NCBI GenBank assembly: GCA_023264445.1
Contig: JAHFMN010000002.1
Coordinates: 142,720 to 206,719 of the forward strand
Source of the DNA: Candidatus Kaiserbacteria bacterium
GTDB taxonomy: Bacteria; Patescibacteriota; Minisyncoccia; Phycocordibacterales; Phycocordibacteraceae
Length of the DNA stretch: 64,000 nucleotides
Direction of reading: 5' to 3'
This document shows, one piece after another, positions 34,537-36,278 of the stretch; positions within the stretch are counted from its first letter, which is position 1; each line of letters opens with the position of its first letter. The notes under the pieces were generated by a model that had not been told where the DNA came from, made no database searches, and saw only the letters and a list, made by a program, of their open reading frames with translations. The translations under genes and the position numbers were made by a program.

Positions 34537-36278
34537 ATCTTCCATCTTCTCGCTCGCGAGGATTCGCGCTCCTCATCGCCATCATTTTTATGTCGGTGAT
34601 GCTTTCCTTCGGCCTCTCACTTGGATCGCTCGCATATAAACAGCAGGTGTTGGCTTCTTCAGCTATCGGTTCACAGTATGCGTTCTATGCTGCCGATGCC
34701 GCGCTTGAGTGCGCGCTCTATGCTGACCAGCAGCAGAATCTCTTTGCCTACACCTCCAATATGTCCGCACCGGCTCCGGCGGTGACGTGCGATGCGGCAG
34801 CGCCCGTCTCCGCTACGGTCGTCTCCCATACCCCGAACCGATGGGTCATTTCCAATCGTTTCTCGCTCGATGCGGGCGCGCGCTGCGCGGATGTGACCAT
34901 CTACAAGCCGTCGGTGACTTCGGATTCAACCTTCCTTTTCTCCCAGGGGTACGATGCGTCCTGCGCGACGGTGGCGAATCCGGCCGGCGCGCGCTTCTCT
35001 TCTCGCGGCATGCAAGTACATTATGGAGCAGTTTCTGCTCCCGGCATGTGTGGCAGCGCAAACGGTGCAACGGTTCCGACTGCGCCGAGCACGAACTTGT
35101 GCATTCCTGAATCTGGCGCGTCGTTTGTCGCCGGAAATGGTCCCTGGACCTGGTCCTGCGCTGGTACGAGCAGAGGCCCTACCGCGTATTGTTCTGCAAA
35201 CCTCGCCACCACCTATGACGGCCAGTGTGCGCTGTCTCACTATAACTGTTCACTCGGCTCGAGTATCAATAATGTCAGTTCACAAAATAACTGGACGTGG
35301 ACGTGCACCGGAACTGGCGGCGGCGCGGCAGTCGGCTGTTCGGAGGTAAAGGTTCTGGCTGGCGTTTGTTCGCCGAATCACTATTCATGCGATGTTGGCT
35401 CGAGCGCATCACACCAAAGTAATTCAGACTTCTGGACGTGGACCTGTCGAGGACAAAACGGCGGTCTGGATACTTCGTGTTCGGAATCGAGAGCGGTAAA
35501 CGGCGTATGCGATGCGACGCACTACAACTGTACTGCCGGCTCGAGTACAAATAACTCGAGTAATCAGTCAAACTGGACATGGTCATGCGCCGGACAAAAT
35601 GGCGGAACCACGGCCGCGTGCTCGGAAACGAAGGTTATCGGTTCATCGTGGACTGCCCGTACCGGTGCCGCAAGTAATAGCTGGAACTCCGTCACCTACG
35701 GCAACGGCATCTTTGCCGCCGTCGCTTCTTCTGGCAGCGGCAATCGCGTCATGACCTCTCCTGACGGCACCACGTGGACCTCTCGTTCAAGTGCCGCCAA
35801 CAATAGATGGAACTCCGTCACCTACGGCAATGGTACCTTCGTTGCGGTCTCCGAAGACGACAGCGGCGCCGGCAATCGCGTCATGACCTCACCTGACGGC
35901 ACCACGTGGACTGCCCGTACCGGTGCCGCAAACAATAGCTGGACTTCCGTCGCTTATGGCAACGGCACCTTCGTTGCAGTGTCGTCCGATGGAAGCAATC
36001 GCGTCATGACCTCTCCTGACGGCACCACGTGGACCTCTCGTTCAAGTGCCGCCAACAATAGCTGGACTTCCGTCGCTTATGGTTTGAGTCTCTTTGTCGC
36101 GGTCGCTGACTCTGGCAATGGCAATCGCGTCATGACCTCTCCTGACGGAACCACCTGGACTAGTCAGTCGAGCGCTGCAGATAATAGATGGAACTCCGTC
36201 ACCTACGGCAATGGCACCTTCGTTGCGGTCTCCGAAGACGACAGCGGCGTCGGCAATCGCGTCATGACCTCGCTCTAG
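34527..36278 (+). CDS. GspK/PilX-like large minor pseudopilin with four Cys-rich modules and a C-terminal tandem beta-propeller (Asp-box/BNR-like) repeat domain; putative pilus-tip adhesin
   Basis: Leader ...SRSRG|FALLIAIIF lacks Glu+5, a GspK hallmark. Four ~45-aa C-x-HYNC-x-GSS-x-WTW-x-C-x-GG-x-CSE modules. Five to six ~42-aa repeats carry [13 protein letters not shown] (SxDGxTW Asp-box-like) and [11 protein letters not shown] motifs. Confidence 0.6.
35640..36270 (+). repeat. about five tandem 123-132-bp coding repeats with near-identical DNA copies inside the pseudopilin gene
   Basis: caatcgcgtcatgacctc... recurs at 35741, 35873, 35996, 36122 and 36254. 66-75-nt blocks are identical or near-identical between non-adjacent copies. 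Confidence 0.75.

Follow-up and report, generated by a model that had tools for sequence, protein, structure and literature searches.

Tandem repeats encoding predicted propeller blades in a putative modular minor pilin of a Kaiserbacteria-like bacterium

The 64-kb stretch of contig JAHFMN010000002.1 analysed here (the window) carries a pilus operon whose final gene ends in an array of tandem DNA repeats. This gene (34527..36278, on the + strand, as are all genes and repeat units of the locus) is an open reading frame (ORF) for 583 amino acids, and the same gene call is found on two other contigs. Its product has three parts: a pilin module with four conserved cysteines (residues 1 to about 173; 34527..35045), four Cys-rich modules of about 47-59 residues with four cysteines each (35049..35621), and five tandem units of 40-44 residues encoded by the repeats (35649..36275). 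It is probable that the repeats encode five Asp-box-type blades, which serve as C-terminal payload to a modular PilX-like minor pilin in an ultrasmall Paceibacterota/Kaiserbacteria-like bacterium from the candidate phyla radiation (CPR).

The pilus operon and its last gene

The operon begins with the genes of the pilus machinery (26918..32808), which were assigned by Pfam on L001, a contig identical to the window, and by Pfam matches of the pilin and PilD. They encode PilB (26918-28708), a response regulator (28737-29135), PilT (29137-30198), PilC (30203-31408), the major pilin (31454-31936) and the prepilin peptidase PilD (32041-32808). The response-regulator gene, which lies between pilB and pilT, is a stand-alone receiver gene. 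Three minor-pilin genes with N-methylation motifs follow (32772..34536; Pfam N_methyl and NCBIfam), and their products are GspH-like (32772-33437), GspJ/ComGE-like (33434-33934) and PilV/GspI-like (33931-34536). Neighbouring genes in this run overlap by 37 nt at pilD, by 4 nt twice, and by 10 nt at the repeat-bearing gene, which suggests translational coupling of tip-complex subunits. Downstream, ligA begins 23 nt 3' of the repeat-bearing gene.

Translation from the ATG at 34527 gives the conserved MAI(N/K) N-terminus found in the orthologues. A longer GTG start at 34473 was rejected, since it overlaps the upstream gene and external gene calls use the ATG. The N-terminal region reads ...SRSRG followed by a hydrophobic stretch of about 20 residues, with Gly at -1. 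The GFxxxE motif of N_methyl is matched by the major pilin and by the three minor pilins encoded upstream, whereas the focal protein has Ile at +5 (F-A-L-L-I) and, like GspK/PilX-type tip subunits, no Glu there. An AlphaFold2 model of residues 1-192 predicts a 60-residue helix (residues 10-70) and, after it, a five-strand sheet, the 'lollipop' of pilins, with a predicted local distance difference test score (pLDDT) of 84.8. In addition, among 29 close orthologues of this module, 19 match Pfam PilX_N, the best with an E-value of 1.3e-7. The gene is the last of four minor-pilin genes, its product has no Glu5, most of its close orthologues match PilX_N and its predicted fold is that of a pilin. 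Together these features make it plausible that it encodes a tip minor pilin, as a preliminary description of the locus had proposed.

Repeat units, blades and exchange of sequence

The 18-mer CAATCGCGTCATGACCTC marks the array. It occurs in exactly five copies on the + strand, starting at 35741, 35873, 35996, 36122 and 36254, which gives spacings of 132, 123, 126 and 132 bp, and it is found nowhere else in the window. The repeats described previously, with their shared start motif, are real. Tandem Repeats Finder reports a single array at 35665-36230 with a period of 126, 4.5 copies, 74% matches and a score of 547. At its 5' edge lies a leading partial unit without the motif (35649-35741), and the fifth motif copy opens just a 22-nt remnant before the stop codon. 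The GC content of the repeat region (0.57-0.61) is similar to that of its flanks, and base composition does not flag a recent foreign origin of the repeats or of the 3' extension to which they belong.

Similarity among the units is a patchwork in which identical segments stand beside strongly diverged ones. The longest exact direct repeat is a 67-nt block (35740..35806 and 35995..36061, offset 255) that spans the junction of blade units U1 and U2 and recurs at that of U3 and U4, so that its copies lie in non-adjacent units, two apart. A second pair, of 89 nt, joins the bodies of U2 (35802..35890) and U5 (36183..36271) at an offset of 381, three units apart. It holds two mismatches, T/C and C/T at 35834 and 35869, and the longest stretches without a difference measure 32 and 34 nt. 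Shorter exact blocks of 29 nt (35931-35959 and 36054-36082, in adjacent units) and 27 nt (35647-35673 and 35905-35931) complete the pattern. Outside the repeat region no 24-mer is repeated within the window, so these blocks lie far above chance. Over whole units, identity on the codon alignment is 66-86%. The preliminary description had called the repeats near-identical, and on exact alignment the copies diverge more than this term allows. It had also reported identical blocks of 66-75 nt between non-adjacent copies, and here one block is indeed exact at 67 nt, while the other is the 89-nt pair with its two mismatches.

In protein terms, the repeats are five blades: U1 (35649-35774), U2 (35775-35906), U3 (35907-36029), U4 (36030-36155) and U5 (36156-36275). 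The array is in frame at the 3' end of the ORF and follows the pattern WTxRxxAAxNxWxSVxYGNGxFVAV... over blades of about 42 residues. An Asp-box, SPDGTTW, stands at four of the five blade junctions, and the fifth is replaced by the C-terminus ...TSL. The Asp-box motif SxDxGxTW marks one of the three main β-propeller lineages (PMC9218822). AlphaFold2 predicts a β-propeller for the repeat region, with four-stranded, radially packed blades, a pLDDT of 91.6 and a predicted template modelling score of 0.89. The focal protein matches no curated Asp-box/BNR family model. EPTP reaches 31.9 bits when summed, with no single stretch significant, DUF6242 gives an E-value of 5e-4, below its cut-off, and neither a BNR nor a Sortilin Pfam match is found. 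Pfam holds no family dedicated to this blade repeat, whose members give only weak EPTP, DUF6242 and Sortilin-Vps10 matches, and a sequence search of the PDB with a blade profile returned nothing significant (best BtSGBP-B, E=0.005). Because the units encode propeller blades of about 42 residues, the 123-132 bp periodicity is structural: it is the repeat of a very widespread Asp-box-type propeller family.

The breadth of this family is evident from protein searches, which return more than 4000 homologues over the repeat domain alone (the C-terminal 36% of the query) at 50-75% identity. These proteins also carry FN3, Big_2, type IX secretion (T9SS)-sorting, Hint or Peptidase_S74 domains, the last being a tail-fibre chaperone. 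Jumbo phages also encode members, as a tblastn search of phage genomes shows, and the annotations of these proteins include 'gene transfer agent host specificity protein' and 'BNR repeat domain protein'. These phage and surface-protein propellers share the blade consensus with the focal protein at 50-75% identity, but they usually have 7 or 14 blades and lack the pilin module. The top 120 protein matches of a hidden Markov model built on the unit likewise have mostly 7 or 14 blades, a count biased towards many blades since bit scores sum over blades. It was replaced by a recount over 80 metagenomic loci found through single-blade peptide patterns, which gave 87 arrays uncut by contig ends. Seven blades are present in 65 of these 87, with 14 blades in three, six in four and five in three.

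Blades within one protein of the family are more alike (median identity 0.60) than blades of different proteins (0.49). With a within-protein identity of 0.72, the focal protein ranks 33rd of 121, and in some members the blades are more than 90% identical to each other. Blades of different homologues show no signal of positional orthology; an attempt to assign the focal blades to positions in a seven-blade ancestor was abandoned on this ground. Since blades resemble each other within a protein and have no positional counterparts elsewhere, the internal DNA similarity is a trait of the family and not peculiar to this gene. Continuous blade amplification with a concerted pattern has been described for highly repetitive propellers (Pereira & Lupas 2022, PMC9218822). 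The focal array resembles such propellers (PMC9218822; Afanasieva et al. 2019, PMC6805158) in the similarity of its blades in DNA and protein, the missing positional orthology and the varying blade number, and the lineages described include the Asp-box superfamily. It differs in its pilin context and in its patchy identity (66-86%), which points to conversion tracts rather than fresh amplification.

The mosaic is clearest in a register that starts at NRVMTS and divides the array into units A (35742-35873), B (35874-35996), C (35997-36122) and D (36123-36254). Across codons 1-21, unit A equals unit C at 21 of 21 codons, while A and D differ there at eight codons synonymously only and at two by amino acid. 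Over codons 22-44, A instead matches D at 21 of 23 codons and C at just 6 of 21. Other unit pairs have many synonymous differences. A permutation test, in which the order of the 48 polymorphic columns was shuffled and runs of concordant sites were scored, gave P values of 5e-5 for A-C, 0.002 for A-D and 0.004 for B-C. Selection on the protein cannot account for the exact blocks, because the same amino acids are written with different codons elsewhere; the blocks reflect recent exchange of sequence among blades.

These patterns support an origin of the patchwork by intragenic gene conversion or unequal recombination, that is, by concerted evolution, and they would favour conversion over duplication. 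Gene conversion between units, already suggested in the preliminary description, is supported by the codon matches and the permutation test. One unequal crossover was considered and discarded, as it fails to yield unit A, a hybrid with the 5' part of C and the 3' part of D. This hybrid stands upstream of B, C and D, and the simplest account would invoke at least two conversion tracts of roughly 65-90 nt.

Array size and competing explanations

Several points weigh against reading the locus as a tip pilin with a binding propeller whose blades have undergone conversion. It has five blades, against seven in the great majority of complete arrays in the recount (65 of 87). When the AlphaFold model is superimposed on seven-bladed propellers, 198 of 218 residues fit at 2.2 Å, and its N-terminal WTAR 'velcro' strand, expected to seal the ring, is not formed. 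The unformed strand and this superposition lead us to read the model as an open 5/7 arc, whose geometry may be inherited from the seven-blade alignment, so a closed and functional binding domain is not assured by the prediction. Moreover, the focal protein on its own scores only E=0.18 (12.2 bits, cut-off 25.5) against PilX_N (PF14341), and partial duplications, as an alternative to conversion, could have produced the identical blocks. A place at the tip, a function as adhesin and the binding of a ligand are inferred.

The five-blade array could reflect a real contraction, an independent amplification or a collapse in assembly. Its ends are canonical, with ..SSWTAR at the start and NRVMTSL before the stop codon, comparable to the NRVMTSG.. 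ends of seven-blade homologues, and the 23 nt before ligA hold no blade remnants. Complete arrays of five blades (L150 and L152) and of six (L104 and L126) also stand between a signal peptide and downstream domains in other members of the family. All four of these loci come from short-read assemblies, as does L084, and collapse may apply there too.

An assembly artefact would mean that the true gene has at least seven blades and that two units were bypassed, by way of a long block common to several copies, when short reads were assembled on a de Bruijn graph. The family norm of seven, the likeness of the model to five-sevenths of a ring, the 'k141' short-read origin of the contigs and the occurrence of family blades more than 90% identical to each other speak for it, but the longest exact repeat, at 67 nt, is far below k=141. 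Under de Bruijn assembly, every junction, including that of the chimeric unit A, would then have to be supported by reads. A collapsed tandem repeat normally breaks the contig, whereas contigs of 212-243 kb span the locus here. The exact agreement of three assemblies also disfavours a collapse, and the canonical ends and the clean interval before ligA do not fit one either; we regard this explanation as unlikely. Alternatively, a recent in-frame recombination may have removed two of seven blades and left a poorly folding domain on its way out. Most orthologues carry no payload, so that a bare pilin module suffices in most relatives, the array has five blades instead of seven, and its model looks like an arc left open; when seven-blade WD40 propellers were reduced to five-blade fragments in experiments, these failed to close and formed aberrant dimers (PMC6805158). 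Such decay is nevertheless improbable. The ORF is intact over 1.75 kb, with neither frameshifts nor stops, and all five units retain the consensus residues of the blades well. A simple deletion would not create duplicated identical blocks, the family has further arrays of five or six blades that come with a signal peptide and domains downstream, and, in the absence of positional blade orthology, a loss of two blades cannot be demonstrated. Also on the doubtful side is the converse possibility, that the five-blade array is real and functional and that recombination between blades changed the blade number of a normally seven-bladed pilus-tip propeller. If this were true, the five blades would close into a ring or would make an arc, open or oligomerising, with altered ligand specificity. 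Changes of blade number together with patchwork conversion would then let an episymbiotic CPR bacterium retune which host surface it grips.

The preliminary description had further taken the array as a substrate for repeat-number variation and so as a device of surface variability. As a contingency locus, the repeats would serve frequent gain and loss of units, so that pilus tips differing in size or antigenicity would arise within populations. The units are in frame and multiples of 3 bp, homologous recombination could act on the exact blocks of 67, 34, 32, 29 and 27 nt, arrays of the family whose ends are canonical have 5, 6, 7 and 14 blades, and the focal array departs from the usual seven. 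Set against this, contigs from two other assemblies are 100% identical to the window over 17.7 and 9.5 kb, making three identical contigs in all, and the 90%-identity cluster of the focal protein has a single member in a collection of about 15 billion proteins, with no length variant. A scan of JGI metagenomes found no close relatives in which copy number might vary, only distant ones with 30-41% identity in the Cys-rich region or with matches over a single blade. The units themselves, at 66-86% identity with exact patches of 27-67 nt, are far from the near-perfect repeats of known contingency loci, and the propeller fold limits the viable copy numbers. Because the units are multiples of 3 bp, on/off phase switching is not possible. 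There is no evidence of repeat-number variation, which under such thin sampling is absence of evidence rather than proof, and we give a contingency locus little probability. CPR bacteria commonly carry diversity-generating retroelements (DGRs), whose targets are often surface proteins, and the near-identical blocks of about 90 nt could be taken for a template/variable repeat pair. However, all units are in-frame parts of one ORF, and their differences involve all base types instead of being limited to the adenines of one copy. The 89-nt block itself differs by T/C and C/T, and the propeller family consensus explains the repeat. A DGR target was rejected on this mismatch spectrum and is exceedingly improbable.

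Payloads, relatives and a possible role

The pilin module itself, of about 170 residues, is kept at 50-76% identity across Paceibacterota, Kaiserbacteria and related metagenome-assembled genomes when the N-terminal 374 residues are used as a query. What follows it varies. The payloads of orthologues (P0123-P0157; L016, L028, L052) include discoidin, LamG, SPRY, NBR1-like, Gly-rich and Cys-rich repeat regions as well as a seven-blade propeller. In P0150, the pilin module is joined to a seven-blade propeller of the same family as the focal blades. The bare module of 162-195 residues makes up most of the 62 orthologue ORFs (80 loci in GTDB species-representative genomes). The closest relative, L003 (76% identity; gene 1227-1700), ends at ...SRGLEASY without any payload, and its gene is followed by ligA, gatA and then the same 192-residue gene as in the window. 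As this payload-free gene has the same synteny, the roughly 1.2 kb that encode the Cys-rich modules and the propeller are a lineage-specific 3' extension. A conserved pilin module with exchanged payloads, which most genomes lack while synteny to ligA is kept, resembles a system of swap-in adhesin cassettes.

Between the pilin module and the blades, the cysteines of the four Cys-rich modules lie at residues 175/192/211/222, 234/241/260/271, 281/288/307/318 and 328/335/354/365. The modules follow the motif C..HY.C..GSS...NWTW.C.G..GG....CSE, of which the first is a variant, CGSANG...NLC...GPWTWSC, and no Pfam family covers them. They may form a disulfide-stabilised stalk. The same motif makes up almost all of P0158, and L083-L088 carry 12-13 copies of it. 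At L084 (3530-6280), six Cys-rich modules are combined with seven blades in a protein that is not a pilin.

The closest known counterpart is PilX2 of the saccharibacterium Nanosynbacter lyticus TM7x, a minor pilin whose signal peptide is non-canonical and whose C-terminal propeller is heptabladed and of RCC1 type (PMC11623550). Deletion of PilX2 halves host binding without abolishing the filament, and the protein has been proposed as a tip adhesin (PMC11623550). Like PilX2, the focal protein belongs to a CPR bacterium and exceeds in size the other minor pilins of its type IV pilus locus, and it combines a pilin module and a non-canonical signal peptide with a C-terminal propeller, here a predicted one. 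PilX2, however, has seven RCC1-type blades, whereas the focal protein has five Asp-box blades (SPDGTTW) after four Cys-rich modules, and it comes from a different phylum-level lineage (Paceibacterota-like). Other comparisons are looser. The focal protein matches GspK/PilX-class tip minor (pseudo)pilins only weakly in structure, and on its own it stays below the Pfam threshold. GspK carries an inserted alpha-domain and not a C-terminal payload. The modular pilins PilB and PilC of Streptococcus sanguinis bear modules with vWA and lectin folds instead of propellers, and PilY1 of Pseudomonas, in contrast to the focal protein, is itself no pilin. No sequence homology of the focal protein to S. sanguinis PilB/PilC or to PilY1 was detected.

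On the reading that we prefer, a propeller-bearing minor pilin, the pilin module of about 170 residues would insert into a tip complex primed by the GspH/I/J-like subunits and thereby anchor the protein. The four disulfide-rich modules would act as a stalk or spacer. The propeller would attach to a ligand, probably a glycan, at the surface of a host or partner cell. Its blades may exchange sequence by intragenic conversion or unequal recombination.

Elsewhere in the window, a 22-nt exact copy of the 5' end of a tRNA-Gln gene (56748-56769, matching 56896-56917) lies 148 nt upstream of that gene (56898-56969). Rfam and ARAGORN report a single tRNA at this site, and the copy may be what is left of an integration site.

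The repeats themselves are of lesser importance, being the ordinary DNA footprint of a propeller with concertedly evolving blades. Modular pilins with a propeller are already known, TM7x PilX2 being an example, and the diversity of payloads and the five-blade anomaly are what is worth following. The question of five versus seven blades is a small case of natural blade-number plasticity, provided that it is not an assembly artefact. CPR bacteria (Patescibacteria) depend on attachment to host cells, and among their attachment devices type IV pili have the best support. To this picture the locus adds a predicted Paceibacterota example of a PilX-like minor pilin with a binding payload. More broadly, one pilin module that carries many different payloads, or none, across related genomes may offer a handle for predicting the determinants of host recognition in these bacteria.

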